From IMG/VR virus record IMGVR_UViG_3300050498_000393: DNA of 64,000 nt; one strand, 5' to 3'. The stretch's first letter is position 1. Every line of letters begins with the position of its first letter. The position numbers were made by a program, and so were the translations under genes. This DNA is from a virus. The notes under the pieces were generated by a model that made no database searches, was not told the DNA's origin, and saw only the letters and a program-made list of their open reading frames with translations. This document shows positions 23,654-51,321 of this stretch, piece by piece.

Positions 23654-23941
23654 TGTTACAAGGTACAAGAAGTTTCGTGCATGTTTTCTATAGAGGCTCT
23701 ACCGCATCAACATACGATTATAAAGTGAAGTTGTTTGCACGTGCGAGCGCTCGAGCGCGTTAGAGGTAGCTGGTAGTAGTTTCTTGTTACTTGTAACAGA
23801 TCTAGAAAAATATACTATGAAAATCGACTACAACCCCAGAGAGAAGACTGTTACAAGAAGCCGTTACATCACCGTCTCTCTGTTGTTACAGCGAACAAGT
23901 CTGATGTGAGATCTGTTACATCAACGTCGGCTCAATGTAAC
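23654..23941. repeat. AT-rich region with at least 9 copies of (T)GTTAC(A) (iteron/origin-like)
   Basis: Copies at 23654, 23784, 23792 (inverted), 23849, 23862, 23884, 23914 and 23936 (inverted), plus GGTACAAG at 23662. Includes the palindrome TGTTAC-TT-GTAACA. Confidence 0.6.
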
Positions 23942-26334
23942 GGCTCCCCGTGCGTCCAACCGTGCACCTCAGTGACTAATTTCAGGCCCGTGTAACCTCG
24001 TCGTAGTGCGCCGCCCTCGCGGCGCAGGTACCGGCCCAGGCCATGCGCCACGACGTCCCGACCGAAGTGCCGTCGCTCCAGCCGGTCGGCGGCCCGCACC
24101 CCCGCCAGCGCGCACCACATCACGTACGCGCCGTAGAGCTGGTCCGTGGTCACCGTGTCGCCGTCCGCGCCCGTGATCACGCACCGCTCCGCGAGGAACG
24201 TGCCGACCAGGTCCTCCTCGTCGCGCAGCTCCCGGGTCGCCGCCAGCACGGTGTCGGGCGCGCCCAGCGACCCGATCCGCTGCCAGTCGCGCAGGCCCTC
24301 CAGCGCCCAGTTCAGTATCCCGGCCGCCTCCTCCTCGTACAGCAGCCGCCCGTAGTCCGCGATTCGCCGCTGGCCGTCCACGACCGCCGTGAAATTGACC
24401 CGGTGCAACCGGCGCCAGGTGGCGTCGCTGGAGTCCCGCACCGCCGGGTGGTTGTTCCCCGCGATCCACAGCTTGAGCTGGGCGTCGAACTCGAAGAAGT
24501 CCCGGTTCATCCGGCGCGCCTTGACGCGCCGCGACCCGGTGAGCTGCTTCACGCGCTCGACGTTCAGCGGCCGGCCCTGCCGGGCCTCGTCCACGAACAC
24601 CAGCCGCGCGCCGGCGAGGTCCGCGAGGATCGTTGGGTGCTGCTCGTCGCCCCCCGTGAGCAGGGCCGACGTGCCGGTCTGCGCGTAGTCGCCGAGCAGC
24701 TCCAGCAGCGGCTCGATGAACGCGTTCTTCCCGTTCGCGCCCGGGCCCTCCAGCAGGAAGAACGCCTGCTCGAGGGTGGAGCCCGTCAGGGTGTAGCCCA
24801 CCGCCCGCCGCAGGTACGCGGCCAGCGCCGCGTCGCCGCGGGTCACGAACCGGACGTGCTCCCGCCAGCGTGGGCAGTCCGCGCCCGGGTCGTACGAGAC
24901 GTTCGCCCGGCGCGTGCAGAGGTCCTCCCGCCCGCTGGCCCGCAGCGTCCCGTCGCGCAGGTCCAGGGTGCCGTTCCGGACGACCAGTAGCCACGGGTCC
25001 CGGTCCAGGTCCGCGACGCGCACGGCCACCGGGTCCTCCGCCGCGGCGGCCTCCAACACCGCGCGGCGTCCCCGCACGGACTCCGTCGCGCGCACCCACG
25101 CCACGTGTCGGTTGCGCTGGTCCTCGTCCACCGCGAGGACCTCCGCGCGTAGGTCGTTGATGACGGCCTTCGTCCACTCGGTGACCCGGTTCAGGTCGTC
25201 CGGCGCCCAGCGGGTGCCGTCCCACAGCAGCCAGCGGCGGGTCTCGGTCACGTACCGCGCCCGGTCGCCGAGCAGCCGCACGAACCGCAGGCCGTTGCCC
25301 GTGTCGCTCAGCGGCTCGCCGTGCTCCCAGCCGGTGACCGCCACCCCGCCGATCGGCCGGTGGCCGTTGGCACTCTCGCCCGCGCCCGTGCCGTCGCCAC
25401 CCGGACCCGCGGCGCGCGCCCAGGCCGGCAGCTCGAGGGGGTTCGGCTCCACCTCCCGCCAGACGCGGTCGGCCTTATAGGCGGCGTGCTCCCACGGCAT
25501 CTCGTAGCGGGCCTCCGGGGGCTGCGCGACGCGAGTCCACGCCCGGAACACCGCCTCGTCGTACCGCTCCCGGTCCACGCCCCGTCGCCGCAGCCGGAAG
25601 CATAGATCGTTGATGAAGTAGTCCCGGTGGCCGTCCGGGCAACCGTCCCGCTGGAACGCCGCGAAGTCGTAGTCCTCGCCGGGTCCGCCGCCGGCGCCCC
25701 CGCCGAACCCGCGCCGCCGGCGCGACGTCAGCCAGGCCAGCGCGTCCGCGGGCAGCTCGGCGAGCGCCGGCACCTCGCCCGGCGCGACGCCGAGCCACTC
25801 GCGGCCGTCCTGCCCGCCGACCGCGCCGACGTACCCGGCCTCCGCCTTGACGTCAGCGCCGTCCGCGAAGCGTCCCGACGTCACCGCCGGTGCCCCGGGC
25901 GGTAACCGGTAGTACAGGTGCCGGCCGCCGGACACCGACCGCGCCGTTGCCGTGACCGGCAGCGCCGCGCAGCTCGTCAGCTCCTCCCAGCGGTCGATCA
26001 CGTCCAGGTGGTCGTGCTCGACGTCCAGGACGACCAGGCCCGAGGCGTGCCCGGTCCGGATCGCCAGCTTGCCCGCCGGCCGCGCGCGTAACATCTGGTC
26101 CAGGCGGTCCGGGTCGGTCGTCGCGGCGTGGAAGCCGTGGCACAGTAGGTGGCCGCAGGTCGCCGGGTCGTGGTGGGGCACCGCGGGCGGATCCGGGCGG
26201 CACGACTCACAGTTGCGGAACGGCACCTTCCCGCCGATCGAGTCCGTCGCGAGGAGGAACACCCGCCAGCCGCGCGTCACGTACCGGGCCGCCCAGTCCC
26301 GGAGCTCGCCGGGTTGTGGTAGGGTAGCTGTCAC
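23932..26334 (-). CDS. bifunctional DNA primase-polymerase / SF3 helicase (P4/D5-like)
   Basis: N-terminal prim-pol pattern (YVTRGWRVFLL..GFHAATTD..GLVVLDVEHD). C-terminal Walker A LEGPGANGKN and Walker B LVFVDEA. Confidence 0.8.
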   Translation of the reverse strand: MTATLPQPGELRDWAARYVTRGWRVFLLATDSIGGKVPFRNCESCRPDPPAVPHHDPATCGHLLCHGFHAATTDPDRLDQMLRARPAGKLAIRTGHASGLVVLDVEHDHLDVIDRWEELTSCAALPVTATARSVSGGRHLYYRLPPGAPAVTSGRFADGADVKAEAGYVGAVGGQDGREWLGVAPGEVPALAELPADALAWLTSRRRRGFGGGAGGGPGEDYDFAAFQRDGCPDGHRDYFINDLCFRLRRRGVDRERYDEAVFRAWTRVAQPPEARYEMPWEHAAYKADRVWREVEPNPLELPAWARAAGPGGDGTGAGESANGHRPIGGVAVTGWEHGEPLSDTGNGLRFVRLLGDRARYVTETRRWLLWDGTRWAPDDLNRVTEWTKAVINDLRAEVLAVDEDQRNRHVAWVRATESVRGRRAVLEAAAAEDPVAVRVADLDRDPWLLVVRNGTLDLRDGTLRASGREDLCTRRANVSYDPGADCPRWREHVRFVTRGDAALAAYLRRAVGYTLTGSTLEQAFFLLEGPGANGKNAFIEPLLELLGDYAQTGTSALLTGGDEQHPTILADLAGARLVFVDEARQGRPLNVERVKQLTGSRRVKARRMNRDFFEFDAQLKLWIAGNNHPAVRDSSDATWRRLHRVNFTAVVDGQRRIADYGRLLYEEEAAGILNWALEGLRDWQRIGSLGAPDTVLAATRELRDEEDLVGTFLAERCVITGADGDTVTTDQLYGAYVMWCALAGVRAADRLERRHFGRDVVAHGLGRYLRREGGALRRGYTGLKLVTEVHGWTHGEPLH

Positions 26335-28526: not shown

Positions 28527-29219
28527 ATGCGCACAGAGAAGCGCACGACCGACGGCCGCGAGATCATCGCACGGGAACCGGCATACGCCCCGCACCCGCA
28601 CCCGAGGCACAACGGCAAATTGGTTCAGGTCGCCGGTGTCACCAAGATCTTGTTGGATGACGGCAGCGAGCAACACGAGTGCGATCAGTGTGGCAAGGTG
28701 TTCAAAACCGCAACTTCGGCGGTCGCTCACCTACCCTCGCACGGTGATCACAAGCCACAGTACCCGCTCGACGTTCTCCGACAGGTGATCCGTGAGGTGC
28801 TGCTAGCTAAGCGCGCGGGTGGTAAAGACTTCTGCGCGAGGGCCGCCGAGAAGCTCAACGCGGCGCAGGTACCGACGGCGCAGGGCAAGCCCTGGTCGGG
28901 GGTAGGTGTGTCATATCTCTACAACCGCTATAAGAACGAGGTGCGCGTGCGAGTGTCCGGTGGTCGTGAGGTCAAGCCAGTTTCGGCGCCGCCGAATCAA
29001 CGGACAGCGTCAACAAGTGATGTGAACACAGACATCGCCGATCAAGTCGCCCGCATCAAGCTGGCGTTGGATCAGGTGTGTGGTCAACTGGGTGACCTGG
29101 GTGAGGCCATCGCCCGCGTAGGCCAGGCCATCGCGGCGTTGCCCGCGATCGACTCGCAGGCCATCGAGGACGCGCGCCGGTTCCGCGAGCTGCAAAAGCT
29201 CATGGGCGGTGGCTCGTGA
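28527..29219 (+). CDS. C2H2 zinc-finger protein with coiled-coil C-terminus (230 aa)
   Basis: CDQCGKVFKTATSAVAHLPSH is a C-x2-C-x12-H-x4-H finger. Confidence 0.65.
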   Translation: MRTEKRTTDGREIIAREPAYAPHPHPRHNGKLVQVAGVTKILLDDGSEQHECDQCGKVFKTATSAVAHLPSHGDHKPQYPLDVLRQVIREVLLAKRAGGKDFCARAAEKLNAAQVPTAQGKPWSGVGVSYLYNRYKNEVRVRVSGGREVKPVSAPPNQRTASTSDVNTDIADQVARIKLALDQVCGQLGDLGEAIARVGQAIAALPAIDSQAIEDARRFRELQKLMGGGS

Positions 29220-29389
29220 GCAAGCTGTTCCCGTGTCAACTCGGCGTCTGTCAGACGTACGTGCAGGCCAACTTTCGAGACACCACGTTGGTGTCGGTCC
29301 ACGTGCACCACACCCACCCGACGTGCGCGTTCGGTGTGGACGTGATCGACCTCAAGACGTGGTACCGTCGGATCGCCAAGCGAAAGTGA
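29216..29389 (+). CDS. small Cys/His-rich protein (57 aa)
   Basis: Hand-found GTG ORF (GTGA overlap): VSKLFPCQLGVCQTY..VHVHHTHPTC... Replaces the implausible track ORF 29209..29403. Confidence 0.5.
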   Translation: MSKLFPCQLGVCQTYVQANFRDTTLVSVHVHHTHPTCAFGVDVIDLKTWYRRIAKRK

Positions 29390-29396
29390 GACCCGG

Positions 29397-30383
29397 GTGC
29401 TGATCCTCGTGGAGGGACCGAACCTGGCCGGTAAGACGACGCTGGTGGATCGACTGGTCACCCAGCTCGCCGCCCGAGCCAGCGGCACGGTCACCCGACT
29501 GCACCGCGGCCCGATCGAGAACCGGCACCCGCTGGACGAATACGTGGTCCCCCTCCTGGACTATCACCCCGGGAGCGGGGACCACGTCGTCTGCGACCGC
29601 TGGCACGTCGGTGAGTCCGTGTACCCGTTCGTCTACCCGCGGCCGAGCAAGCTCGATCGTCCGACGTGGCTGTACATCACCGCGTTCCTCCGCGCACGCG
29701 GCGCCCTACTGGTGCATCGTACGGCGTTGCCCTCGGTGTTACGGAGGCGTCTACTCGAGCGTGGTGACGAGAACCTCGCGGTCAACTCGGATAACCTACG
29801 AGTTGAGAAGGACATCTTCGAGGTGATGTGTGCCGGTGGCTCGGCGACCGGTAACGTCGCCACCATGAGAATCGAAGGATCCGCTGACGAGGAGGTTCTG
29901 CGCAACATACGCGCCCGCGCACAGGTTCACGAGATAAGCGCGCGCAAGCTCGCCCCGTTCGTCACCTACGTCGGGCCGCCGAACCCGACCTTCCTGCTGT
30001 TCGGCGACGTGCGCGGTGGACCGAATCACCGACATCGCCACACCAACGACCCGGCGTTCGGTCCGTACCCCAACACCTCCGGGTACTACCTACTGCGTGC
30101 CCTCGACCTGCGAACGCCCAACTTAACCCAGATCGGTATCGCCAACGCGTGTGACGTGGACGATCCGGTCGATCTGTGGGAGACGCTCGGCCGTCCCCGG
30201 GTCGCGGCGCTGGGACGCAACGCGGCGCGTCTACTCCGCAAGCTCGACGCGTTTCCGTTCGGCGCGGCGCCCCATCCCCAGTTCATCAGGCGCTTTCACC
30301 ACGCGCATCACGTCGAGTACGGTCGCGTCGTGATGGAGGCCCTACTGACCGGAGAGAGTACGCCATCGTGGCAGCCCTACTGA
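29397..30383 (+). CDS. fusion of a P-loop (d)NMP-kinase-like domain with a uracil-DNA-glycosylase-superfamily domain
   Basis: N-terminal VEGPNLAGKTTL. The C-terminal FGDVRGGP..AFGPYPNTSGYYLLRAL..IANACDV..VAALGRNAARLL..APHPQFIRR follows family-4 UDG motif order. Confidence 0.7.
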   Translation: MLILVEGPNLAGKTTLVDRLVTQLAARASGTVTRLHRGPIENRHPLDEYVVPLLDYHPGSGDHVVCDRWHVGESVYPFVYPRPSKLDRPTWLYITAFLRARGALLVHRTALPSVLRRRLLERGDENLAVNSDNLRVEKDIFEVMCAGGSATGNVATMRIEGSADEEVLRNIRARAQVHEISARKLAPFVTYVGPPNPTFLLFGDVRGGPNHRHRHTNDPAFGPYPNTSGYYLLRALDLRTPNLTQIGIANACDVDDPVDLWETLGRPRVAALGRNAARLLRKLDAFPFGAAPHPQFIRRFHHAHHVEYGRVVMEALLTGESTPSWQPY

Positions 30384-31216
30384 CCTTCGAGAGTGGCCAG
30401 CACGCCTACCCCCACGTCGTCAACTGGGTGCTCGCGCACGGTCAGCCGCGCGGCGCGCGCGGCCTGCCGACGCTCGACTGCACACACGTGACCGTCGAAC
30501 TACTGTCACCGCTGAACGCGCTGCCGCTCAACTGCGGTCGCCGACTCAACCCGGCCATCGCCGCGTTGGAAGCCGCGCAACTGATCGGCGCGTTTTCGGA
30601 TCCCGAGCTCTGCGTCCGGATCGCACCCAACTTCCGGCGCTACCGCGAGGCAAGCGGCGTCTTCCACGGTGCGTACGGTCGACGCATCGGCGCCCAGCTG
30701 TCCGCCGCGATCACCAAGATCAAGAAGGATTCCGACACCCGGCAGGCGGTCATCTCGCTGTGGGATCCGTGGTTGGACAACCAGCCGGGAAAGCTGGACT
30801 ACCCGTGCACGATCGCACTTCGCCTGTCGCTCAACCCGGACGGCCGGCTCGACGTGGACGTGCTGATGCGCTCCAACGACGTTTGGCTCGGCACCCCGTA
30901 CGACTGGTTCCAGTTCACGCAGCTGCAGCTGACCGCGGCCCACGCGCTGGACGTCGAGCCGGGCACGTACCGACACACGGCGTGGTCCCTACACCTCTAC
31001 CGCGAGAACGAGGAGGCGGCGTGGAACGTGCACGCGTTTACCTCGCGAACGAGCCAGCCGCGCGGTATCGGTATTCGCGGCGAGGACGTCGACTCGATCG
31101 TGAGACGAGCGCGACGCTTTCACCTTAACGGTGAGGTTACCGACCGTGAGGCCGAGATGTGGACCAATTCAGAGAGGTGGTACCGTGAACGACTCAAGCC
31201 GCCCGTCGTGGGATGA
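30368..31216 (+). CDS. thymidylate-synthase-family enzyme, predicted deoxycytidylate hydroxymethylase/methylase
   Basis: RQAVISLWDP, DYPC147, RSNDVWLGTPYD179WFQF and SLHLYREN align with the ThyA motifs. Asp replaces the uracil-specifying Asn. GTG at 30368. Confidence 0.7.
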   Translation: MAALLTFESGQHAYPHVVNWVLAHGQPRGARGLPTLDCTHVTVELLSPLNALPLNCGRRLNPAIAALEAAQLIGAFSDPELCVRIAPNFRRYREASGVFHGAYGRRIGAQLSAAITKIKKDSDTRQAVISLWDPWLDNQPGKLDYPCTIALRLSLNPDGRLDVDVLMRSNDVWLGTPYDWFQFTQLQLTAAHALDVEPGTYRHTAWSLHLYRENEEAAWNVHAFTSRTSQPRGIGIRGEDVDSIVRRARRFHLNGEVTDREAEMWTNSERWYRERLKPPVVG

Positions 31217-31739
31217 GACGTGGATCAACGTCGCCCGCGTCGTTGCCCACCGCTCGCTCTGCGAGCGCGATAAGATCGGTGCGGTGATTGTCGACCCGCG
31301 CATGCGCATCGTCGCGACCGGGTACAACGGCCCGCCGTCCGGCTTCACCCTACCCGACCGGTTGACCGCCAACCGGCCGTGCGCCGAGTGGTGTCCACGG
31401 TCTGCCACGGCCGATTGGATAGCCGGAAAACCGCCGTATGAGAACGGTGAGGACTTTCCTAAGTGGGCCAACGCCGGCTTTCACGGACCGCATCCCGACT
31501 ACTCCGACTGCCCGTCACTCCACGCCGAGGCCAACGCGCTGTCGGTGTGTGAACGTTTCGTGCGCGAGAACGGCACGATCTACGTCACCGGAGACATCTG
31601 CTTCGGATGCGCTAAGTTAATTGCGAACTCTGGCCTGGCACGCGTCGTCATCGACGGCGTCCGACCGGCGATCCACCGCAACCCGGCGCGGTCGCGCGAG
31701 TTTCTGGTGACCTGCGGCCTCGCGGTGGTGGTAGTGTGA
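31185..31739 (+). CDS. dCMP deaminase (CDA fold)
   Basis: RPSWDETWINVARVVAHRSLC..KIGAVIVD, LHAEANAL and ICFGCAKLI zinc motifs. A ~45-aa insert lies between them. GTG at 31185 with an AGAGAGGTGG SD. Confidence 0.75.
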   Translation: MNDSSRPSWDETWINVARVVAHRSLCERDKIGAVIVDPRMRIVATGYNGPPSGFTLPDRLTANRPCAEWCPRSATADWIAGKPPYENGEDFPKWANAGFHGPHPDYSDCPSLHAEANALSVCERFVRENGTIYVTGDICFGCAKLIANSGLARVVIDGVRPAIHRNPARSREFLVTCGLAVVVV

Positions 31740-33508
31740 GCCTCGATGACGTACAACTTCACCGCATCGAGACACCCGACGACGTCGCCGCGTTCCAACG
31801 ATGGCTCGGCGAGCGCCGGCCGGTGCACGCGCTCGGCTATGACACCGAGACGACCGGGCTCGACGTCCACAACGACGACGTGCGTCTGATCCAGTTCGGG
31901 GACGGCGAACACGGTTGGGCGATGGATCGCGAGGACTGGTTGGGTCTGGCACGCTGGGTGTTCAAGGTGTGGGACGGTCGGTACATCATCCACAACGCGC
32001 TGTTTGACGTGCCGATCACCGCGGCGTCGTGCGGCATCGACATACCCCGCGAGCGGGTGGACGACACACTGGTCACCTCCCGGATCAACGAACCGCACTA
32101 CTCGGCGGCGCTCAAGAATCAGGCCGAGCGTCACGTAGATCCGGCGGCGGCCGGTCTGGCGTACGTCCTGGCAGACACCTCGTGGACCTGGGAGACGGTC
32201 CCGACTGACTACCCGCCGTACTGGCAGTACGGCGCGTTAGACCCGGTGCTCGCCTATCACCTGTGGCTCCACCACGGCCCGATCGTCCAGCGGGAGGCCC
32301 CCGCGTCATACGACCTCGAGCTGTCGGTGCTCTGGGTGCTCGAGCGTATGATGCGCAACGGCGTGCACGTCGATCGCGCGCTCGCCGCGCGTAAGCAGAC
32401 CGACTTCGAGAGTTACTGTGAGGACGTCGCCGTGTGGTGCCAGACGAACTATCGGGTCAAGCCCGGCAGCAACGATGCGGTCATCGCGGTGTTGCGCGCG
32501 GCCGGCCACGAGTTCACCAAGCTGACGAAGAGCGGTCGGCGGGAGGCCCTGGACAGCGACGTTCTCGAGGGAATCGCTCACCCGTTGGCACGCGCGGTGC
32601 TGACGCGGCGCCAACTGCAGAAGATCGCCTCAACGTACCTGCGTGCGTTCGTCGAACTCACCGACGAAAACGACATCATTCATCCCGGCATCAACCCGCA
32701 GGGCGCGCTGACGTCACGCATGTCGATGGAGAATCCCAACCTCCAAAACCTGCCGGTGCGCGGTACCAACCCCGGCGGCGAGGTGGTGCGACGATGCGTC
32801 GACTCGCGGTACGGACCGGACGGCCGACTGGTGCTGTGTGACTTCGACCAGGTCGAGATGCGTTTGCTCGCGCATCTCTCGCAGGACGACGGTCTCATTC
32901 AAGCGTTTCACTCGGACGGTGACTTCTTCGTCAACCTGGCGCGCCAGATCTTCGACGACCCGACGATCGTCAAGGGTGACACCCGTCGGCAAGTCACCAA
33001 GAATGCCAGCTACGCCAACGCGTACGGCGCCGGGATCCACAAGTTTGCGCTCACCGCCGGGATCACCGACCAGCAGGCGAGCGACTTCATGACTCGCTAC
33101 CGCAGTATGTACCCAGGTGTGCCACGACTGCAACAGACCGTGCAGCGTGTCGCGAGCCAGCGGCTCGCCGAAGAGGGAGTGCCATACGTTCGCTCGCCGG
33201 TGACCCATCGACGCTGGGCGAGTGACCCTAAGAAGACCTACGCGCTGGTGAACTACCTCATTCAAGGGGTCGCCGCCGAGGTCTTCAAGCAGAAGTTGCT
33301 GCAGCTGGACGCGATGGGCCTCGGCGAGTACATGTGTATTCCGGTGCACGACGAGGTGATCCTCGACGTGCCGCTTGCGGAGGTGCCCGAGGTGGCGAAG
33401 ATGGTTCGTGAGGGCATGACCGACGAGACCTCATTCGCCGTGCCGATCACCGCGGGCGTTGCCACCGGTACCAACTGGCGTGACAAGGAGGAGTGGTTCG
33501 GTGAGTAA
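31736..33508 (+). CDS. family A DNA polymerase with 3'-5' exonuclease domain
   Basis: Exo motif YDTETTGL. Pol motifs DFDQVEMRLLAH, RRQVTKNASYANAYGAG and IPVHDEVILD. Confidence 0.9.
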   Translation: MSLDDVQLHRIETPDDVAAFQRWLGERRPVHALGYDTETTGLDVHNDDVRLIQFGDGEHGWAMDREDWLGLARWVFKVWDGRYIIHNALFDVPITAASCGIDIPRERVDDTLVTSRINEPHYSAALKNQAERHVDPAAAGLAYVLADTSWTWETVPTDYPPYWQYGALDPVLAYHLWLHHGPIVQREAPASYDLELSVLWVLERMMRNGVHVDRALAARKQTDFESYCEDVAVWCQTNYRVKPGSNDAVIAVLRAAGHEFTKLTKSGRREALDSDVLEGIAHPLARAVLTRRQLQKIASTYLRAFVELTDENDIIHPGINPQGALTSRMSMENPNLQNLPVRGTNPGGEVVRRCVDSRYGPDGRLVLCDFDQVEMRLLAHLSQDDGLIQAFHSDGDFFVNLARQIFDDPTIVKGDTRRQVTKNASYANAYGAGIHKFALTAGITDQQASDFMTRYRSMYPGVPRLQQTVQRVASQRLAEEGVPYVRSPVTHRRWASDPKKTYALVNYLIQGVAAEVFKQKLLQLDAMGLGEYMCIPVHDEVILDVPLAEVPEVAKMVREGMTDETSFAVPITAGVATGTNWRDKEEWFGE

Positions 33509-39433: not shown

Positions 39434-40756
39434 ATGAAGATCGGGTACGGTAAGCTGGGTCGCAGCATGCCGCTGACCCTCTCACAATGCGGTAACCTCG
39501 GCGGCGACGTCGAGATGGTGCCCACGATCGATGCGCTGGCACGGCGGCATCCCGATGACGAGTTCTGGCTGCTCGGTCGCAACTCGGGTGAGGAACCCGT
39601 GTCGGTCGGACTGCCTTCGAACGTGATCAACCCGTGGAAGTGGTGGGGACCCGCGGTGTTGGAAGCCAAGCGTGCCGTCGGCCTCAACCACCCTGACCTG
39701 TCGATCGAGGAACACGACAAGCTCGGTCGGATCTTCGATGAGATCACGACGCCAACGTTTGTCGCGATGGATGCGTTGGTGCTCTGGGTTGGACAGCACG
39801 GCACGACGAACTCACCGATCCCGGGCGTTCGTAAGGAAGGCCTCACGAAGCCTCACGACTGGTGCGCGCTCTACTGCTCATATGTGCTGCGCGGCGTCAA
39901 CGCGTGGCGCGACGTAGATCCGTGGAAGCGTGAGGAGGTGTGGCTCAACTCGGATCCGCGTAACTACATGAAGATGCGCGACCTGAAGTGGCCCCTACGA
40001 CACCCGGTGCTGACACAGTACACGTTCATCAACCGTATGAAGCACGAGCGGTACGGCGACGGTGACGCCTTTGAAGAGTGGTCGGCGCACAACCACTGCG
40101 CACTCGAGCGGTCGAGTCACCGCGACAGGCTGTGGCTCTCTTACGCGCGCAACGAGTACGCCCGTCTCGAGGTCAACTCCCTGCTTCCCGGCGCACCGTT
40201 CGCGAAGGACGCGTGGTTCAGAAAGTATGATGCAGACCCAGCGCCGTTTGGCATCTTCATCAACGAGACGCGCCGTTACGTCAACTCGGCGAAGACTCGC
40301 TCACGGATCTTGCGCGACTGGGTGCTGCCACTCGAACCGGCGTTCATCCACGGCACGTGGTCGAAGGAGGGCCAGGCCGAGGTCGGTCGCGTGATCGAGC
40401 CACTGTCGCCGTCATCGTACTTCGCCCGGCTGCGGACCGTGCGATCAACGTTCACTACCCCGGCCAGTGGCACCGGTTGGGCGACGGCGAAGCCGTGGGA
40501 GGCGTTCGCGGTAGGCGTCGTGTGTTTCTTCCACCCGGACTACGACGACCAGGACAACATCCTCGGCGACGCACACCCGGACCTGCGCCGCTGGTTGCGA
40601 GTCGAATCGCCGGAACAACTCGCCAACCGTGTCAAGCACATGGCTGCAAACGACGAGCACTGGCGCTGGGTGATCGTCGAACAGTACAATCACTTTCGAC
40701 GCGCCGTCATCAAACCACGGTATCTGATGGCGATCGAGGAGAGGATCTGGAAGTGA
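39434..40756 (+). CDS. putative GT-B-type glycosyltransferase (440 aa), target unknown
   Basis: C-terminal ...TAKPWEAFAVGVVCFFHPDYD... resembles the sugar-donor-binding EA-x-A-x-G-x-P region of GT-B enzymes. The overall layout recalls T4 beta-glucosyltransferase. Not verifiable here. Confidence 0.4.
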   Translation: MKIGYGKLGRSMPLTLSQCGNLGGDVEMVPTIDALARRHPDDEFWLLGRNSGEEPVSVGLPSNVINPWKWWGPAVLEAKRAVGLNHPDLSIEEHDKLGRIFDEITTPTFVAMDALVLWVGQHGTTNSPIPGVRKEGLTKPHDWCALYCSYVLRGVNAWRDVDPWKREEVWLNSDPRNYMKMRDLKWPLRHPVLTQYTFINRMKHERYGDGDAFEEWSAHNHCALERSSHRDRLWLSYARNEYARLEVNSLLPGAPFAKDAWFRKYDADPAPFGIFINETRRYVNSAKTRSRILRDWVLPLEPAFIHGTWSKEGQAEVGRVIEPLSPSSYFARLRTVRSTFTTPASGTGWATAKPWEAFAVGVVCFFHPDYDDQDNILGDAHPDLRRWLRVESPEQLANRVKHMAANDEHWRWVIVEQYNHFRRAVIKPRYLMAIEERIWK

Positions 40757-41529
40757 GACGAGGAACCTCGGGCGCCGCGATCATGGTAAGTACCAATAAT
40801 CCGTTCCGGGTGCATAAGAGGGGCGACGAGCGGGTAGGCACGCAGGGTCGTTGGCTCCGGTCGATCAACCCACTGCCTTCTATCCTCCCGTATGTCTGGA
40901 CGACGCACGCCGAGTCATACGAGATGGAGTTGCTCCAGGAACCCAACCTCGGTTGGCTCGACACGCAGGTGTTACTGGAGTGGCTCGTGAGACAACTCGA
41001 GGATGACATCTGGGCACGCGATCCGGTTGTTGGATTCGACCTCCGGGCACACCAGCGTAAGCTGCTGCTCTACACACCGTTCCACGAGGTGTCGGACCCG
41101 GCGTGGACCCGATTCGTCGAACTACGACGAGAGATCGACTGGGACTCCCTGCGCCGCTGTCTCACACACGGTGACCCGACGTACGACAACGTGATGTTCC
41201 GTGACAACTCTGGTAAGCTGCCGACGCCGGTGCTGGTGGACCCGCTGCCGGCGACGCCGGCGGTGCCCGACCTTTGGTCGGTGGACCTGGGTAAGCTGCT
41301 GCAGTCGTGCCTCGGTTGGGAGGTGCACCGGTACTCGGATATTCGCATGTCATTCGCACACCCGCTGGAGCTACGCCAGGCGCTCAAGCTCGAACAGACG
41401 GACAACGAGTGGCGCGCGACCGTGTACTGGTGCGTCGTGCACCTGCTACGTACACTGCCGTACCTCGAGTCCGCGACCACACGCATAGGCGTGGGAAGGA
41501 TGATCGATGAGGCGTTACTTCTACTTTGA
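40753..41529 (+). CDS. APH/choline-kinase-like phosphotransferase (putative sugar kinase)
   Basis: LTHGDPTYDNVMF (HGDxxxxN) and VLVDPL. GTGA overlap start (alternative ATG at 40783). Confidence 0.6.
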   Translation: MRRGTSGAAIMVSTNNPFRVHKRGDERVGTQGRWLRSINPLPSILPYVWTTHAESYEMELLQEPNLGWLDTQVLLEWLVRQLEDDIWARDPVVGFDLRAHQRKLLLYTPFHEVSDPAWTRFVELRREIDWDSLRRCLTHGDPTYDNVMFRDNSGKLPTPVLVDPLPATPAVPDLWSVDLGKLLQSCLGWEVHRYSDIRMSFAHPLELRQALKLEQTDNEWRATVYWCVVHLLRTLPYLESATTRIGVGRMIDEALLLL

Positions 41530-42067
41530 CATCGACGGTGTGCTCGTGGACTCGCGTGCCACCGTGCGCGCCGCCTACGAGGGGGCTCTCGGCCAGCGCA
41601 TCGACGACGCCGTCTGGCAGGAGGTCTGGGGCAAGCCGTGGAAGTTGTGGCTACCCGACTTCGTGGGCGAGGTCGGCGAATCGGTCGGCGTGCACCGGCG
41701 TAAGAACGACATCTACCGCGAGCTGATCCGTGGTGGCCACGCGTTGCCCCTGGCCGGTGCGGTCGCCGTGCGTCTACTCCACGGCATGGATCACGGTGTT
41801 CGTCTGATCACCGGCGCGTCCGAGACGGCCGCGCACGCCGTCCTCCACTGGCTCAACATACCGATCCAGCTGTTGGATGTCACCGAGGCAAGTCGTACCG
41901 ACAAGGTAACCCGGCTCGCGTACCTCGAGTCACACGGCGGCGTCATCCACACCGACGATGACGAAAAGCTGATCGCCGAGCTCGAGGAACGCCGCGTGCC
42001 CGCGGTGCACTTCCACGGACAGTCGATCGACGAGTTGATGGATGAGTTGTGGACACGGTCATCCTAG
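41507..42067 (+). CDS. HAD-superfamily phosphatase/phosphomutase
   Basis: Motif I, YFYFDIDGVLVDS. Confidence 0.65.
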   Translation: MRRYFYFDIDGVLVDSRATVRAAYEGALGQRIDDAVWQEVWGKPWKLWLPDFVGEVGESVGVHRRKNDIYRELIRGGHALPLAGAVAVRLLHGMDHGVRLITGASETAAHAVLHWLNIPIQLLDVTEASRTDKVTRLAYLESHGGVIHTDDDEKLIAELEERRVPAVHFHGQSIDELMDELWTRSS

Positions 42068-42756
42068 CCGCGGGACGCAATCAACGACTGCAACACATCA
42101 TTCCCCCATATCACAAGCCGTTCATCGTGTTGAACGGTCGATCGGTGCTCGAGCGGGCGGTCGACGTCGCCACACAGACCCACCCGGGTGATCGCTGCAT
42201 CGTCGTGTGCGCCCCCCAGAACGCCGTGCAGGCGGCACACGTGGTCAACAGTCGAGCACTACTCGCGGTGCAAGCAATGCCACGTGGTCCCGGTGATGCA
42301 CTGTGGTGTGGGTTGCAACTCGTGGTTACCGAGCACGTGCTGGTACTCATGGGTGACAACGTAACGGATGTCGGGGATGTGCGGCTGTTTCAACCCACCT
42401 CTGACGCGACCGAACGCATCGGGATCCAGCGCACGCGAGATCTCGAGCGCGCCGCGTCATTCACCGTGTGGAACCACAAGTCACGACGTTGGGAGGAGAA
42501 GGTACCGATTGGACCCGAGCACACCGAACCCGCCGTCGACATCTACGGTGATGACACACGGCTGGTGACGTGTTGGTTTGGGCCCCTCATGTTACGCACC
42601 GCTAGAGCCCTGGACGTTCTCACTACGACACGTGTTGTCGACGATGGTACGGTTCGACCTGAGCTGCTCATCGGACCCATCTTAAGTGAATTGGCACCCA
42701 ACGGCATTCACGTTCCGGTGCACACATCCGACGTTGACACGGAGGTATTGCGGTGA
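42049..42756 (+). CDS. sugar-phosphate nucleotidyltransferase
   Basis: VILAAGRNQRL (LAAGxGxRL signature). Confidence 0.65.
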   Translation: MDTVILAAGRNQRLQHIIPPYHKPFIVLNGRSVLERAVDVATQTHPGDRCIVVCAPQNAVQAAHVVNSRALLAVQAMPRGPGDALWCGLQLVVTEHVLVLMGDNVTDVGDVRLFQPTSDATERIGIQRTRDLERAASFTVWNHKSRRWEEKVPIGPEHTEPAVDIYGDDTRLVTCWFGPLMLRTARALDVLTTTRVVDDGTVRPELLIGPILSELAPNGIHVPVHTSDVDTEVLR

Positions 42757-43667
42757 CAAAAACCGCCCTGGTGACCGGCTCGAACGGTTTCCTCGGTCGA
42801 CACTTCGTGCGCGAACTCGAATCACGCAACTGGAATGTCGTGACGATGGATGGTGAAGATCTCTCCAACGACGTCCGTGCGCTGTGGTACGAGACGGAGG
42901 ACGACACGTACGACCTCGTAGTGCACTGCGCGGCCGTTGGTCCAAACCGCGTGGCAATGTCGACGCCGAGCATGAATCTCGCTACCAACGTGCAACTGGA
43001 CGCGACGCTGTTCAACTGGGCTGTACAAACCAACCAGCGGCACGTGATCTACATCTCCTCAGCGGCGATCTACCCGGTGGAACTGCAGAGTATCGTTCTG
43101 AACATGCCCGGCTTCGAGACGATGTTGATCGAAAGTGATGTGCACCTTGACGATCCCGAGGTGCGCGTACCGGACGGCGACTACGGCTGGACAAAGTGGC
43201 TCGGCGAACGTATGGCACACCGGGCGCGCGCGCTCGGACTACAGGTTACGATCGTGCGACCGTTCTCGGGGTACGGCGAGGACCAGGACCCCGAACACTT
43301 CCCGTTTCCCGCCATCATGCGACGAGTGTGCAACGGCAATCTCACCGTGTGGGGCCCGGCCGGTCAGCGTCGTGACTGGATCCACGTCGACGACGTCGTA
43401 CGCGGCGCACTCGCGATCGCGGAGACCTCGGTCAACGAGACGGTGAATCTGTGTACGGGCGTCGGAACCACGTTCGGCGACCTGGCCGTCGCGATGGCCC
43501 GGGAGCTCGAGTTGCCGATCGCGCATCATCACATTATCTACGATGAGAACAAACCGACCGGTGTGTATCACCGCGTCGGTAACCCGGCACACATGCACGA
43601 GTTCTACGAGCCAAAGATCACACTCGAGGAGGGGATCCGACGTGCAGTCCGAGCCGCCGGTGCCTGA
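42753..43667 (+). CDS. NAD-dependent epimerase/dehydratase (SDR)
   Basis: ALVTGSNGFLGRH Rossmann motif. YGWTKWLGE is the YxxxK motif. Confidence 0.75.
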   Translation: MTKTALVTGSNGFLGRHFVRELESRNWNVVTMDGEDLSNDVRALWYETEDDTYDLVVHCAAVGPNRVAMSTPSMNLATNVQLDATLFNWAVQTNQRHVIYISSAAIYPVELQSIVLNMPGFETMLIESDVHLDDPEVRVPDGDYGWTKWLGERMAHRARALGLQVTIVRPFSGYGEDQDPEHFPFPAIMRRVCNGNLTVWGPAGQRRDWIHVDDVVRGALAIAETSVNETVNLCTGVGTTFGDLAVAMARELELPIAHHHIIYDENKPTGVYHRVGNPAHMHEFYEPKITLEEGIRRAVRAAGA

Positions 43668-44172
43668 TCGTTTGGCTACGATGATCGCGCTCCAGCGTTC
43701 GTTGCAGGAGACGCACATGCTTCGCGGCAACACGTTCGCTGATATGACCACACTGGAGCGGGTGCACTACGTCAGGGACATGTACGTCGCCGCTACCCAG
43801 GAGCTCGGTGAGGTGCTCGACGAGACGACGTGGAAGTCGTGGTCCGTCGCGCAACCCGCGATCCACGATGATCACCTCTTCGGCGAGGTGATCGACGTGT
43901 GGCACATCGTTATGAACCTGTTCCTCGTCGCGCGACCGAACGCGACGTCGGATGAGATCGCCGCCGAGATCTACCGTGCGTACCAACGGAAGCGACAGAT
44001 CAACGTCGAGCGGCAGGTCAACGGCTACGCCGGCGACGGTAAGTGTCCACTCTGCACGCGGGCGCTGGACGACGTGGGGTTCGTACCCGACCTCGAGGCG
44101 GATCCGGCCGGTCAAGACATGATGATGTGCCTCGGCTGTCGCGGTACGTTTCCACGGGACGACGTGAGGTGA
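43642..44172 (+). CDS. all-alpha NTP pyrophosphohydrolase (dimeric dUTPase/dCTPase/MazG-like) with C-terminal zinc ribbon
   Basis: ATQELGEVLDETTWKSW...GEVIDVWHIVMNLF acidic helix pattern. CPLC...CLGC. GTG at 43642 with a GAGGAGGGG SD. Confidence 0.55.
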   Translation: MQSEPPVPDRLATMIALQRSLQETHMLRGNTFADMTTLERVHYVRDMYVAATQELGEVLDETTWKSWSVAQPAIHDDHLFGEVIDVWHIVMNLFLVARPNATSDEIAAEIYRAYQRKRQINVERQVNGYAGDGKCPLCTRALDDVGFVPDLEADPAGQDMMMCLGCRGTFPRDDVR

Positions 44173-45371
44173 CCTACCGAGCGCTGGACGTCATGGGCTT
44201 CGCCGGCGGATTCACCCTCGGCGTCGTACAGGCCGGCTTCGAACTGGTCGGTAAGCGGGAGCTTCAGGGCGGATTCGGCGTGGCGAACTGTGAGGTCAAC
44301 CGACACCTACTCGGCTCGCGCTGGCAGACCGAGATCGGCCACGAGAGCTCGTGGACGCCGGTGGACACCGAGTTGGTCTTCGGCAACCCACCCTGCTCCG
44401 GCTTCTCGGTGATGTCGGCGAAGACGTTTCGCGGCGCGGACTCGAAGATCAACCACTGCATGTGGGCATTCGTCGAGTACGCGGCGCGCGTGCGACCCCA
44501 AGTCGCCGCGTTCGAGTCCGTCCAGCAGGCGTACACGAGCGCCGACGGCCGTGTGCTCATGACGTCGCTGCGCAATCGACTAGATGAGTTGACGGGTTGG
44601 CACTGGAACCTGCATCACGTGTTACACAACGCGTACTCGGTGGGTGGCGCCGCGCAACGACGTCGCTACTTCTGGGTGGCGTCGCGCGTGCCGTTCGGCG
44701 TCGAGGAACCCAACCCGCGCACGCGCCTTCCCCTGCTGCGCGACGTGATCGGCGACCTCGCCCAGCTCGGCCAGACGTGGCTACCGCAACCCTACCGAGC
44801 CAGCGCCGATTCCTGGGCCGAGCCGCGTCGCCGTACGGACGGTGCGGTGGACGGTCACGTGTCCCTGGACATCCCCCTGACCCGCCGGATACGGCAACTA
44901 CTGGACGCCGTCGACTGGAAGCCGGGGGAGGCGCTCGGCGACGTGTTATCTCGCTACTGGGACGAGTACGGCCGACTGCCCAACGGCTTTGACGAGGAAA
45001 AGATCGTTAAGAACGAGTTCCACGTGGGTTACACGACTCCGACGCGCTGGAACGGTAACAACCCGGCGCGTGTAATCACCGGTGGCGCGCTGCAGATGGT
45101 CGTGCACCCGTGGCTCGACCGGACGATCACCCACCGCGAGGCCGCGCGGGTGATGGGTTTTCCCGACGACTGGCTGATCGAACCGCTACGCGGCAAGTCA
45201 GGCCTACACCTCACGTGGGGTAAGGGAATCACGGTCGACTGTGGGCGCTGGCTCGGTGGTTGGATCAAGCGTGCCCTAGACGGTCAGCGGGGTAGCGTCG
45301 CCGGTAAGCTGGTCGGTAACCGTGAGTGGACCATCGACGTCACCAACTCGTATCGCAAGTTCATGTGGTAG
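44169..45371 (+). CDS. DNA cytosine-C5 methyltransferase-like enzyme
   Basis: Motif I DVMGFAGGF, motif IV GNPPCSGFS (Ser where Gln is usual), motif VI AAFESVQ, and REAARVMGFPDDW. GTGA overlap start. Confidence 0.75.
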   Translation: MTYRALDVMGFAGGFTLGVVQAGFELVGKRELQGGFGVANCEVNRHLLGSRWQTEIGHESSWTPVDTELVFGNPPCSGFSVMSAKTFRGADSKINHCMWAFVEYAARVRPQVAAFESVQQAYTSADGRVLMTSLRNRLDELTGWHWNLHHVLHNAYSVGGAAQRRRYFWVASRVPFGVEEPNPRTRLPLLRDVIGDLAQLGQTWLPQPYRASADSWAEPRRRTDGAVDGHVSLDIPLTRRIRQLLDAVDWKPGEALGDVLSRYWDEYGRLPNGFDEEKIVKNEFHVGYTTPTRWNGNNPARVITGGALQMVVHPWLDRTITHREAARVMGFPDDWLIEPLRGKSGLHLTWGKGITVDCGRWLGGWIKRALDGQRGSVAGKLVGNREWTIDVTNSYRKFMW

Positions 45372-46554: not shown

Positions 46555-47412
46555 GTGGGTAAGTGGACCGACGTCGCGACGTGGCGAGGTCCAACCGAGA
46601 ACGAGGGGCCGGCACTCACGACCCACCGAGGTCTCGTGTTGCACATCGCGCAAGGATATTACGAAGGTACGATCGCGTGGCAGAAGAACCCCGACGCCAA
46701 CGTGTCGAGTCACTTCGTCATCGGCAAGAACGAGGGTGAGTGCGCACAGATCGTTGACACGGATCGCCAGGCGTGGACCCAGCGGGCGGGTAACTCGTCG
46801 TGGATGTCGTCCGAAAACGCCGGGTTCGTACCGGACGCGCTCACCGCGTGGCAGATCGAGGCGAACGCGCGGATCTTCGCGAAGGGTTATCTCGTCTACG
46901 GCTGGCCTCTGGTGGTCGCCAACAACCCAACCGAGCGTGGTCTCGGACACCACTCGATGGATCGTGAGGGCATCGACGCCGAGTGGGGTCACGATGACTG
47001 CCCGGGGTCCAACATCATCAAGCAGAAGCAGGCGATCGTCGACCGCGCGATCCAGATCGTAAACGGAGAAAGTGACGACATGGAGCAAACCGAGAAGCTG
47101 ATCAATGACACCGGTTCCTCGAATCGTACCGTGGGCAACGTGCTGGCCGACGTGGAAAACCTACGTAACTGGCTGGTCTCCACACCCGGCACATCAACGC
47201 TCGGTACGCCACCGCCGGGTTCGGTCGGTGCGATCATGCTCGAATCGGCTCAAAAGCCGCCGGTCAACGCCGCCGAACTCTGGGCGATCATGCGCGAGGA
47301 CACCGAGTGGCGCCTGGCGCTAGCCGGTGACATCGCAGCGTTGATCAACCGGAGCTCGATGACGGTCAGTCTGACCGGCTCCATGTCCGGCTCGGCGGTG
47401 CCCACGACCTGA
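46555..47412 (+). CDS. endolysin, N-acetylmuramoyl-L-alanine amidase (amidase_2/PGRP type)
   Basis: LVLHIAQG..SSHFVIGKNEGECAQIVD..WGHDDCPG zinc-ligand pattern. C-terminal domain unassigned. Confidence 0.75.
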   Translation: MGKWTDVATWRGPTENEGPALTTHRGLVLHIAQGYYEGTIAWQKNPDANVSSHFVIGKNEGECAQIVDTDRQAWTQRAGNSSWMSSENAGFVPDALTAWQIEANARIFAKGYLVYGWPLVVANNPTERGLGHHSMDREGIDAEWGHDDCPGSNIIKQKQAIVDRAIQIVNGESDDMEQTEKLINDTGSSNRTVGNVLADVENLRNWLVSTPGTSTLGTPPPGSVGAIMLESAQKPPVNAAELWAIMREDTEWRLALAGDIAALINRSSMTVSLTGSMSGSAVPTT

Positions 47413-47507: not shown

Positions 47508-47717
47508 GTGACTACCGTATCTCCCAAGTTTCCCGACGTAGTGGTCAAGTTGACCGGTGTTGATGGCAACGCGTTCAACCTGATCGGTATCGTGACCGGC
47601 GCACTACGGCGTGCCGGCCACCGCGACGCAATCCGTGAGTTTTTGGACGCGGCGTTCGAATGCGATAACTACGATGCGCTGCTCCAGCACATCATGAAGA
47701 CCGTGGAGGTGCGCTGA
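47508..47717 (+). CDS. hypothetical protein (69 aa)
   Basis: GTG ORF following the promoter/leader with a strong SD. Confidence 0.65.
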   Translation: MTTVSPKFPDVVVKLTGVDGNAFNLIGIVTGALRRAGHRDAIREFLDAAFECDNYDALLQHIMKTVEVR

Positions 47718-48643
47718 TGACCAACACGACGCTGACCAACACGCAGTTCTCCGCGCGCGAGGTGCCCTGGATGAAGCTGGGCAAGCTCGTGGACGAGCCG
47801 ACGACCGCCGCCGAGGCGGCCAAGCTAGGCGGCCTTGACTTCAAGGTCGAGAAGCGTGAACTCTGGTTCACCGGCCTGCACGGTATGCAGGTGATCAAGG
47901 AGCGCTGTGCCGTCGTACACCGCGACACCGAGGAATGGCTCGGGATCATGAGCGACGAGTACCCGCTGCTTCAGTACTCCGAGGCCTTCGACTTCATGGA
48001 CACGATCTCCCCCACGTTCGTCGCCGCGGGTGCGCTACACGGCGGTCGGCAGGGCTTCATGGTCGTCCGGGCACCGGGCAAGTGGGAGTTCAAGCTCGCA
48101 CACGGTACCGATCTCCACCACCTCTACCTCGTGTTACGCACGTCGCACGACGGCTCGCGCGCCGTCGAGGTGTCGATCCAACCACTACGCGGGCTGTGCA
48201 TGAACCAACTGACCCTGCGGTCATTCGTCGCCGGGGTACCCCACCGCTGGTCGATACCGCACACCAGCACCATGACTACGAAGTTGGCCGAGGCGAAGAA
48301 GTCCATCCACAAGTTCAACGAGTACGGCGCGGCGCTGACCAAGCTCAGCGACAAGCTGGTAGACCTGAAGGTCGGCCAGCCGCTCGCCCAGCAGGTACTC
48401 ACCCGCGTGATTCCCGATCGTCCACGTGCCCAGGAGGTGCGTGAGGAGATCCTGAAACTGTGGACCGGCGCCCCGACGGTCGGCTACGCCGGTACCGGTT
48501 GGGGTCTGGTCAACGCGATCAGCGAGTACTTCGAGTGGGGTCGCACCGGCGGCACACCGCAATCGCGTTTCGTCGGTGCCCTGCAGGGCCAGACGCACCA
48601 GGCGATCAACCGCGCCGCGGGTCTGCTGTTGTCCCGCGCCTGA
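47717..48643 (+). CDS. DUF932-like protein (308 aa)
   Basis: The N-terminal REVPWMKLG..AAEAAKLGGLDFKVEKREL... and ..GGRQGFMVV.. pattern is typical of the phage/plasmid DUF932 family. Recognition from memory only. Confidence 0.5.
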   Translation: MTNTTLTNTQFSAREVPWMKLGKLVDEPTTAAEAAKLGGLDFKVEKRELWFTGLHGMQVIKERCAVVHRDTEEWLGIMSDEYPLLQYSEAFDFMDTISPTFVAAGALHGGRQGFMVVRAPGKWEFKLAHGTDLHHLYLVLRTSHDGSRAVEVSIQPLRGLCMNQLTLRSFVAGVPHRWSIPHTSTMTTKLAEAKKSIHKFNEYGAALTKLSDKLVDLKVGQPLAQQVLTRVIPDRPRAQEVREEILKLWTGAPTVGYAGTGWGLVNAISEYFEWGRTGGTPQSRFVGALQGQTHQAINRAAGLLLSRA

Positions 48644-51311: not shown

Positions 51312-51321
51312 ACGTTCGATT

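Follow-up and report, generated by a model that had tools for sequence, protein, structure and literature searches.

The ThyA-like gene and its family

The DNA analysed here is a 64,000-nucleotide stretch (referred to below as the window) of the IMG/VR virus record IMGVR_UViG_3300050498_000393, and the subject is a gene of the thymidylate synthase (ThyA) superfamily at 30368..31216 on the plus strand. It lies between a gene for a putative kinase fusion and genes for a deoxycytidylate (dCMP) deaminase and a family A DNA polymerase (PolA). Its 282-amino-acid (aa) product is predicted, from a match to PF00303, from similarity to the CMP 5-hydroxymethylase MilA and from signature residues, to be a dCMP hydroxymethylase (dCH), that is, a synthase of 5-hydroxymethyl-dCMP (5-hm-dCMP). 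The 282-codon frame identified by open reading frame (ORF) analysis of the window begins with GTG at 30368 and ends at 31216, and its first 16 nt are shared with the end of the upstream ORF (29397-30383). Gene calling on six ENA metagenome contigs of this phage, the longest of which is ERZ27257649 k141_977963 (65,534 bp), independently gave the same 282-aa product, and the plus frame of 30368-31216 has the bias in third-codon-position GC content (GC3) of a coding sequence within a window of 64% GC. Antisense ORFs over the gene (e.g. 30506-30976, minus strand) were rejected as high-GC artefacts, since the plus frame carries both the GC3 signature and the homology. A megablast search of 29000-33500 against 50,697 phage records returned no match; thus, the phage has no close cultured relative from which published DNA chemistry could be borrowed.

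The protein matches Pfam PF00303 (Thymidylat_synt) with 60 bits against a cut-off of 24.3 and, among PHROGs, best matches 'thymidylate synthase' families (E 9e-41). All seven matching NCBIfam ThyA equivalog models, on the other hand, remain below their cut-offs (about 18–51 bits versus at least 108), including TIGR03283 (50.8 bits, cut-off 174.55) and TIGR03284 (43.9 bits, cut-off 108.35). Among PDB sequences the top match is MilA (E 1.3e-12), ahead of every true ThyA, and the structures of phage T4 gp42 are not among the best 60. An AlphaFold2 model built from 32 homologues reached a mean confidence (pLDDT) of 94.7, and its Foldseek matches to structures of MilA and ThyA had a probability of 1.00; the MilA entries were the best PDB matches, with template modelling (TM) scores of 0.77–0.81 over the whole length, compared with about 0.58–0.67 for ThyAs. 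Against predicted viral structures the top match was a protein of an uncultured phage (TM 0.89), and a T4-like Gp42 was also recovered (TM 0.67/0.80).

A search for family members gave 433 matches at E<=1e-5; the 120 best are all 255–320 aa long, and many lie on contigs of about 60–65 kb. In blastp comparisons the protein's own clade comes first, with homologues in Actinomycetia phage DSL-LC01 (45% identity), Gordonia phage Forza (39%) and Pseudoxanthomonas phage PW916 (33%), all of which carry the same Asp residues as the query in the MAFFT alignment. Among typed enzymes, hydroxymethylases of the deoxyuridylate (dUMP) hydroxymethylase type score highest (93, 90 and 80 bits), followed by MilA (65 bits, fragment), PaMx74 (63), RB69 gp48 (57), E. 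coli ThyA (53) and T4 gp42 (33). Its residues suggest that the protein works as gp42 does, but it belongs to a separate hydroxymethylase-like clade with an Asn-to-Asp switch, nearer to MilA and the dUMP hydroxymethylases than to the gp42 lineage.

Diagnostic residues

Reference enzymes of each class were taken from public records and compared with the query in two MAFFT alignments and in HMMER alignments to PDB chains. For these references the published rules are recovered in the alignment, the products of the PaMx74, CP-51 and PaSz-9 proteins being assigned by inference rather than measured on those proteins, and family conservation was counted over 121 metagenomic homologues (46–99% identical). 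The earlier note on this DNA had read the motifs RQAVISLWDP, DYPC147, RSNDVWLGTPYD179WF and HLY as those of a ThyA paralogue in which Asp replaces the Asn that recognizes uracil. All of these motifs are present with the numbering it gave, Asp179 is encoded by the GAC codon at 30902..30904, and the placement of this residue holds in both MAFFT alignments and in the HMMER–PDB alignments, where it occupies the column of T4 gp42 Asp179, the MilA Asp (reported as Asp186; PMC5175136) and E. coli ThyA Asn177. Cys147 (TGC, 30806..30808) falls in the column of the catalytic nucleophile (E. coli C146, T4 C148) in the same alignments. Both residues are invariant in 121/121 homologues, which, together with the PF00303 E-value of 2.3e-16, confirms a motif placement far beyond chance; E68, Y103, R125, D144, P146, T148, R168, S169, D171, H209 and Y211 are likewise invariant in all 121.

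The published rules are expressed in E. coli ThyA numbering, in which C146 is the nucleophile and specificity passes to cytosine when N177 becomes Asp (PMC13326640, PMC8670742, PMC5175136). The residue three positions before the nucleophile (Cys-3) is Leu in methyl-transferring ThyA and Asp or Glu in hydroxymethylases (PMC6400193, PMC13326640); in T4 this residue, Asp145, activates the substrate water, the D145N enzyme is inactive, and Asp at Cys-3 has been proposed as a hydroxymethylase signature (PMC6400193). Asn in place of D169 is the mark of flavin-dependent 5-hydroxy-dCMP synthases, a class described recently (PMC13326640), while in MilA the preference for ribose is conferred by Ala176 and Lys133, which replace Ser and Arg (PMC5175136).

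Around the nucleophile, at the RSxD motif and at the N177 position, respectively, the sequences read ALAPCH, RSCD and N in E. coli ThyA (product thymidylate, dTMP); SDFMCT, RSND and D in T4 gp42 (5-hm-dCMP); LEYPCT, RSQN and D in RB69 gp48 (5-hydroxy-dCMP); RNVPCP, RSSD and D in the ThyA homologue of PaMx74, a 5-methylcytosine (5mC) phage (5-methyl-dCMP); IDVACT, RAND and D in MilA (5-hydroxymethyl-CMP); KDxPCN, RSND and N in CP-51 and PaSz-9, of the 5-hydroxymethyluracil (hmU) type (5-hydroxymethyl-dUMP); and LDYPCT, RSND and D in the query. The Cys-3 residue of the query, Asp144 (GAC, 30797..30799), is shared with T4, MilA, CP-51 and PaSz-9, the corresponding residue being Leu in ThyA (Leu143 in E. 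coli) and Asn in PaMx74. The following residue after the nucleophile (Cys+1), Thr148, is in the state of T4, RB69 and MilA, in place of His147 in E. coli ThyA, Pro in PaMx74 and Asn in CP-51 and PaSz-9. The C-terminus is helical and MilA-like according to the alignment and Foldseek, and it does not carry the 'Y(D/N)P(H/R)P' tail of ThyA and PaMx74.

Cytosine specificity of the query enzyme is largely supported by Asp179 at the N177 position, while Ser169 and Arg125, which stand at the positions of MilA Ala176 and Lys133, indicate a deoxyribonucleotide rather than MilA's ribonucleotide as the probable substrate. The residues of the query can be read as a combination of cytosine, hydroxymethyl and deoxyribose marks without the hydroxylase mark, and the compact rule set on which this reading relies (the Cys-3, Cys+1, D169 and N177 positions) tells the four known product classes apart.

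Two classes were rejected as candidates, namely a MilA-type CMP hydroxymethylase, whose Ala176/Lys133 pair is absent, and a dUMP hydroxymethylase of the SPO1 gp29/M6/CP-51 type, whose Asn at the N177 position is not kept. The dUMP hydroxymethylases of M6/PaSz-9 and CP-51 type and the 'pyrimidine hmase' of ctfPj964 share with the query the FHGAYG, K/L-D-x-P-C and RSND motifs, but differ in the uracil mark, that is, Asn at the N177 position (as in E. coli ThyA) and Asn after the Cys, where the query has Asp and Thr. By annotation, the phages in question are hmU phages.

The D169 column bears on a further class. A flavin-dependent 5-hydroxy-dCMP synthase of the RB69 gp48/DLP3 gp80 type (PMC13326640), with 5-hydroxycytosine as a sugar acceptor, would share with the query the Asp at the N177 position, an acidic Cys-3 residue and Thr at Cys+1, and the sugar-nucleotide and glycosyltransferase genes of the window would also suit it, as sugar-nucleotide genes lie near the RB69-type enzymes as well. 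It is nevertheless very improbable, since the D169N change is absent from the query and from the whole family (Asp171, GAC, 30878..30880, in 121/121), with RB69 gp48 itself validating the column by its Asn, and similarity to RB69 gp48 is low.

The same residues bear on public annotation. Gordonia phage Forza and its relatives, as well as DSL-LC01, carry the Asp signature under the label 'thymidylate synthase', and the PW916 protein (OL960029, L004:3280-4098) is annotated as 'deoxyuridylate hydroxymethyltransferase', yet its residue at the N177 position is Asp and its Cys is followed by Thr. The PW916 annotation is therefore probably wrong, and the enzyme should act on dCMP rather than dUMP.

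Hydroxymethylation, methylation and thymidylate supply

The earlier claim of a cytosine-switched ThyA paralogue making a C5-modified dCMP is supported by sequence, the structure model, family conservation and genomic context. Its product had been given as 5-hydroxymethyl- or 5-methyl-dCMP; the former is favoured, because of Asp144, the MilA-like C-terminus, the lack of a match for a dihydrofolate reductase (DHFR) gene by tblastn with one query sequence and by Pfam scans of about 45 ORFs, and the fact that the nearest typed relatives are hydroxymethylases, and the latter is disfavoured. We estimate at about 65% the probability that the enzyme is a folate-dependent dCMP hydroxymethylase making 5-hm-dCMP, and the phage DNA, judging from the active-site residues, probably contains modified cytosine.

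An enzyme of the XP12/PaMx74 type would convert dCMP into 5-methyl-dCMP and dihydrofolate, so that cytosine in the DNA would be replaced by 5mC, and the neighbouring deaminase would turn part of the methylated nucleotides into thymidine nucleotides. Deamination of 5mC to T would make a separate thymidylate synthase unnecessary, and would neatly explain why neither ThyX nor a canonical ThyA was found in the window, which was searched by tblastn (one query sequence each for ThyX, from a relative, and DHFR, from PaMx74) and by Pfam scans of about 45 ORFs, the window representing 64 kb of a 65.5-kb contig. The PaMx74 enzyme has the Asp179 equivalent, and its module shares with the query locus an adjacent dCMP deaminase, a nucleoside triphosphate (NTP) pyrophosphohydrolase and PolA-type replication (PMC9206674; bioRxiv 10.1101/2024.12.05.627091). 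In the same neighbourhood of ThyA(D), dCMP deaminase, PolA and a MazG/PRA-PH-like pyrophosphohydrolase, five of the seven metagenomic enzymes tested made 5-methyl-dCMP (bioRxiv 10.1101/2024.12.05.627091), and PMC8670742 cites N229D/N177D mutants of true ThyA as becoming dCMP methylases.

Methylation nevertheless seems unlikely for the query. Its Cys-3 residue is an invariant Asp, as opposed to the Asn of PaMx74 and the Leu of ThyA; Thr at Cys+1 is the state of T4, RB69 and MilA and not the Pro of PaMx74; the ThyA-like insertion and C-terminal tail that PaMx74 keeps set it apart from the query, which lacks that tail; and the query scores higher in blastp to hydroxymethylases than to PaMx74. In addition, neither the tblastn search with PaMx74 DHFR nor the Pfam scans of about 45 ORFs found a DHFR gene in the window, whereas PaMx74 has one next door and all eight XP12-type (Pamexvirus) phages encode the enzyme (PMC9206674), XP12 and PaMx74 both being reported 5mC phages. 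All of these arguments are correlative, and the list of methylase features is provisional, as it was built from one typed relative and PMC9206674.

Besides the 5-methyl-dCMP products reported from that neighbourhood and the lack of a detected thymidylate synthase gene, several points weigh against hydroxymethylation by the query. The Cys-3 rule is itself correlative and is based on few typed enzymes. T4 gp42 is distant (33 bits, 27% identity over 115 aa) and scores below E. coli ThyA. The Ser/Thr-x-Tyr element (T4 Ser94-Asn95-Tyr96), which is part of the proposed dCH signature (PMC6400193), is not kept, the query having Gly101-Ala102-Tyr103, with Gly101 invariant in 121/121 homologues and Ala102 present in 111/121. 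However, the FHGAYG motif of the query is identical in the M6-like and ctfPj964 hydroxymethylases, so the Ser/Thr-x-Tyr element looks specific to the T4 clade. Finally, the window encodes an apparently intact C5 cytosine DNA methyltransferase (44043-45371, plus strand), in which the FxGxG, PPC and QxRxR motifs are preserved (FAGGFTLG, GNPPCSGFS and AQRRRYFWV). This gene, in the same operon, is awkward for full replacement of cytosine and argues against it, as 5-hydroxymethylcytosine (hmC) at every C would leave its product without a substrate.

The question of dTMP supply is informed by a relative, the 63-kb contig L010 (JGI Ga0616356_000105), which encodes a ThyX (PF02511) at 1306-2010 on the minus strand besides its ThyA(Asp) gene, which shows that dTMP synthesis is not the task of the ThyA-like gene in this lineage. 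The L010 contig also carries a PIG-L family gene. The annotation of homologues in public records would have the query be an ordinary thymidylate synthase (EC 2.1.1.45) converting dUMP to dTMP with the help of the dCMP deaminase, and a trio of deaminase, synthase and kinase does superficially resemble a pathway to dTTP. Such a role is hardly credible, given the Asn177-to-Asp, His147-to-Thr and Leu143-to-Asp changes, the missing C-terminal tail, which in ThyA closes over the folate, equivalog scores far below every cut-off and the ThyX of L010.

The predicted hydroxymethylase resembles two characterized enzymes in different respects. With T4 gp42 (EC 2.1.2.8; 1B5E; ternary complex in PMC6400193) it shares the superfamily, the catalytic Cys, Glu and Tyr, the Asp at the N177 position, the Asp at Cys-3 and the Thr at Cys+1, as well as an RSND motif in which Asp is retained and the lack of a ThyA-like C-terminal tail; it differs in having Gly/Ala in place of Ser94 and a 60-aa helical C-terminal extension that is absent from T4. 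With MilA (and BcmA) of Streptomyces rimofaciens (5JNH, 5B6D) it has in common the same three marks at N177, Cys-3 and Cys+1 and a helical C-terminal region, and MilA is of an actinobacterial lineage, like the predicted host of the phage. MilA, however, prefers ribo-CMP and serves antibiotic biosynthesis, whereas the query has residues of the deoxyribo type and a predicted role in making a DNA precursor.

By analogy with T4 dCH and MilA, Cys147 would add to C6 of dCMP, while Asp179 would read and protonate the N3/N4 face of cytosine. Methylene-tetrahydrofolate (5,10-methylene-THF), activated by Glu68, would then be joined at C5, the C5 proton would be taken by Tyr103 and a bound water, and THF would be eliminated. 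A water molecule positioned by Asp144 would presumably add to the exocyclic methylene without hydride transfer, which would yield 5-hm-dCMP and THF.

Neighbouring genes and the predicted precursor pathway

The neighbours named in the earlier note, a P-loop kinase fusion, a dCMP deaminase and an all-alpha NTP pyrophosphatase, prove to be real. The kinase fusion (328 aa, 29397..30383, plus strand), which is translationally coupled to the ThyA-like gene directly downstream, is predicted to be a hm-dCMP kinase from its matches to PHROG 761 (thymidylate kinase), to SPbeta YorR and, by Foldseek, to thymidylate kinases (TMPK). Its N-terminus has the thymidylate-kinase fold (AlphaFold2 pLDDT 91.7), and the fusion is kept in homologues of 307–360 aa among the matches listed of 387. 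The C-terminal domain of about 143 aa (residues ~186–328) is alpha/beta and has the invariant motifs LLxGD..R, PAFxP..TSG, NACDVDD and HPQxxRRF; its one family signal is a faint match to PF03167, of the uracil-DNA glycosylase (UDG) superfamily, in 4 of 17 members with E-values of at least 0.038, the PDB sequences searched with phmmer and with a profile yielded just a spurious match to a de novo TIM barrel, and Foldseek of the full kinase model was dominated by the TMPK domain. The pattern GD...PAF.P..TSG/HPQ gives an impression of a fold like that of family-4 UDG, which may serve as a lead. To our knowledge, no deoxynucleoside monophosphate (dNMP) kinase joined to a UDG-like domain has been described.

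The dCMP deaminase (184 aa in the ENA gene calls, 31185..31739, plus strand; longest ORF from 31131) matches PF00383 and PHROG 174, and its best PDB match is the T4 dCMP deaminase Cd (1vq2, E 1.9e-11). It is followed by the family A DNA polymerase (31736..33508, plus strand), whose homologues carry DNA_pol_A_exo1 and DNA_pol_A domains, that of DSL-LC01 being annotated as DNA polymerase I. The gene order is conserved in DSL-LC01 and in three related metagenomic contigs (L010, L018 and L019), where it runs from the kinase fusion through ThyA(D), dCMP deaminase and PolA to RuvC-like, SNF2 helicase, PD-(D/E)XK, Sak4-like and DUF669 genes and a gene for a protein of ~450 aa. The counterpart of the last in the window, a 440-aa protein (39434-40756, plus strand), is kept in related phages, always just after the DUF669 gene, and is 51% identical to the 451-aa protein of L010. 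Neither this protein nor the 258-aa product of the next gene (40753-41529, plus strand) matched anything in Pfam, PHROGs, NCBIfam, PADLOC or PDB sequences.

The position of the deaminase gene, which overlaps the end of the ThyA-like gene in a conserved order, raises the alternative that hydroxymethylation is followed by deamination of hm-dC nucleotides, so that the DNA would contain hmU, possibly together with hmC. Seven metagenomic ThyA-linked deaminases indeed gave 5-hydroxymethyl-deoxyuridine in cells making 5-hydroxymethyl-deoxycytidine nucleotides (bioRxiv 10.1101/2024.12.05.627091). The nearest solved relative of the query deaminase is, however, the ordinary T4 enzyme, no 5-HMUDK-type kinase or aminotransferases were seen in the Pfam and PHROG scans, and the ThyX of L010 implies ordinary dTMP. 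T4 itself holds the same pair of dCMP hydroxymethylase and deaminase without making hmU. This fate of the hydroxymethylated nucleotide is thus quite improbable.

The all-alpha NTP pyrophosphatase, of the dimeric-dUTPase/MazG-like type and a candidate dCTPase/dUTPase, is encoded at 43642..44172 on the plus strand (longer ORF from 43543) and matches dUTPase_2 (E 3e-10) and the PHROG dUTPase/NTP pyrophosphohydrolase families, with the Campylobacter jejuni dUTPase 1w2y as its best PDB match; tblastn with T4 gp56 aligned at 43885-44028 (40% identity over 48 aa, E 2e-7). The suggestion of a T4-like precursor pathway holds up in that the nearest solved relative of the deaminase is T4 Cd and the pyrophosphatase has a local match to gp56, the T4 dCTPase. 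The window thus has neighbours of the same kinds as T4, with a dNMP kinase and relatives of Cd and gp56. The two differ in the kinase, which in the query is of TMPK type with an additional domain and does not resemble T4 gp1, and in the polymerase, which belongs to family A in the query and to family B in T4. In such a pathway, hm-dCMP would be phosphorylated by the coupled TMPK-like kinase, hm-dCTP would be made by a host nucleoside diphosphate (NDP) kinase and incorporated by the phage PolA, and the gp56-like pyrophosphatase would convert dCTP (and dUTP) back into monophosphates. The Cd-like deaminase would supply dUMP, with dTMP synthesis left to the host in this phage and a ThyX carried by the relative.

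Phage contigs with modified cytosine have already been shown to be typified by N177D homologues of ThyA encoded beside dCMP deaminase and PolA (PMC8670742; bioRxiv 10.1101/2024.12.05.627091). The concept is therefore known, and what deserves note here is the distinct MilA-like clade, widespread in uncultured high-GC phages and also present in cultured Gordonia phages; the literature searched contained nothing linking dCMP hydroxymethylase or hmC with actinophages and no report of DNA chemistry for phages of the clade. If the assignment is correct, a widespread lineage of uncultured high-GC phages would replace cytosine with hmC by means of an enzyme clade separate from that of the T-even phages and closer to MilA, which serves antibiotic synthesis in Streptomyces, and hmC-type DNA would extend past the best-characterized T4-like phages to phages infecting Actinobacteria. 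Such a modification would explain resistance of this DNA to restriction enzymes and some sequencing chemistries, and the 'thymidylate synthase' labels in Gordonia phages Forza, GMA2 and Phendrix, in DSL-LC01 and in PW916 would have to be corrected. An actinobacterial host is supported by a WhiB-family gene (48711-49049, plus strand; Pfam E 2.7e-16), by the GC content and by the nearest cultured relatives, which makes it the presumed one.

Further genes may be connected with the DNA. Contiguous with the NTP pyrophosphatase gene, 41507..43667 (plus strand) encodes a HAD phosphatase/mutase-like protein, a sugar-1-phosphate nucleotidylyltransferase and an SDR epimerase/reductase, the last of the GDP-fucose-synthase/RmlD-like type, and together with the gp56-like pyrophosphatase and the C5 methyltransferase they form a run of five overlapping or abutting plus-strand genes (41507-45371). 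The occurrence of sugar-nucleotide genes among nucleotide-pool and DNA-modifying genes suggests a DNA hypermodification cluster, and a link of the three sugar genes to DNA modification is possible from this arrangement. In relatives, other sugar genes occupy the corresponding place: those for a glycosyltransferase and a UDP-galactopyranose mutase in DSL-LC01, one for an epimerase in L018 and, in L019, one for a multi-domain methyltransferase with a Methyltransf_14 domain, for which a sugar role may be supposed.

A dTDP-glucose 4,6-dehydratase-like gene (49142-50149, plus strand; NCBIfam 203 bits) is convergent with three minus-strand glycosyltransferase (GT) genes at 50131-52537, one GT-B-like (50131-51192) and two of family GT2 (51322-51915 and 51899-52537), beyond which lies a weakly Methyltransf_23-like ORF (52528-53157). 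Tblastn searches of the window with the T4 beta-glucosyltransferase, the DSL-LC01 glycosyltransferase and the DSL-LC01 UDP-galactopyranose mutase gave no match. The glycosyltransferase genes are next to one that weakly matches a PHROG 'tail protein', at the apparent end of the tail operon, and glycosylation of virion proteins is known in mycobacteriophages; the three enzymes could thus act on virion proteins rather than DNA. Phage clusters of HAD, nucleotidylyltransferase and GT genes have been reported to glycosylate hmC (bioRxiv 10.1101/2023.12.21.572611). The phage could conceivably synthesize an NDP-6-deoxyhexose itself and transfer the sugar to 5-hmC in its DNA, giving a so far undescribed glycosyl-hmC hypermodification to which the kinase–UDG-like fusion and the 440-aa protein could also contribute; we regard this as possible but doubtful. 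It would mean that about a third of all bases are modified in a GC-rich actinophage.

Two other genes of the window may be mentioned. A DUF932 protein (47717-48643, plus strand; Pfam E 2.6e-31, PHROG 1221) is encoded between a lysis-like amidase gene (46555-47412) and the WhiB gene. An 800-aa primase-helicase with Prim-Pol, D5_N and DUF5906 domains is encoded at 23932-26334 on the minus strand, in a stretch whose GC content of 0.75 (24–26 kb; GC3 0.94) exceeds the value of about 0.64 for the window.

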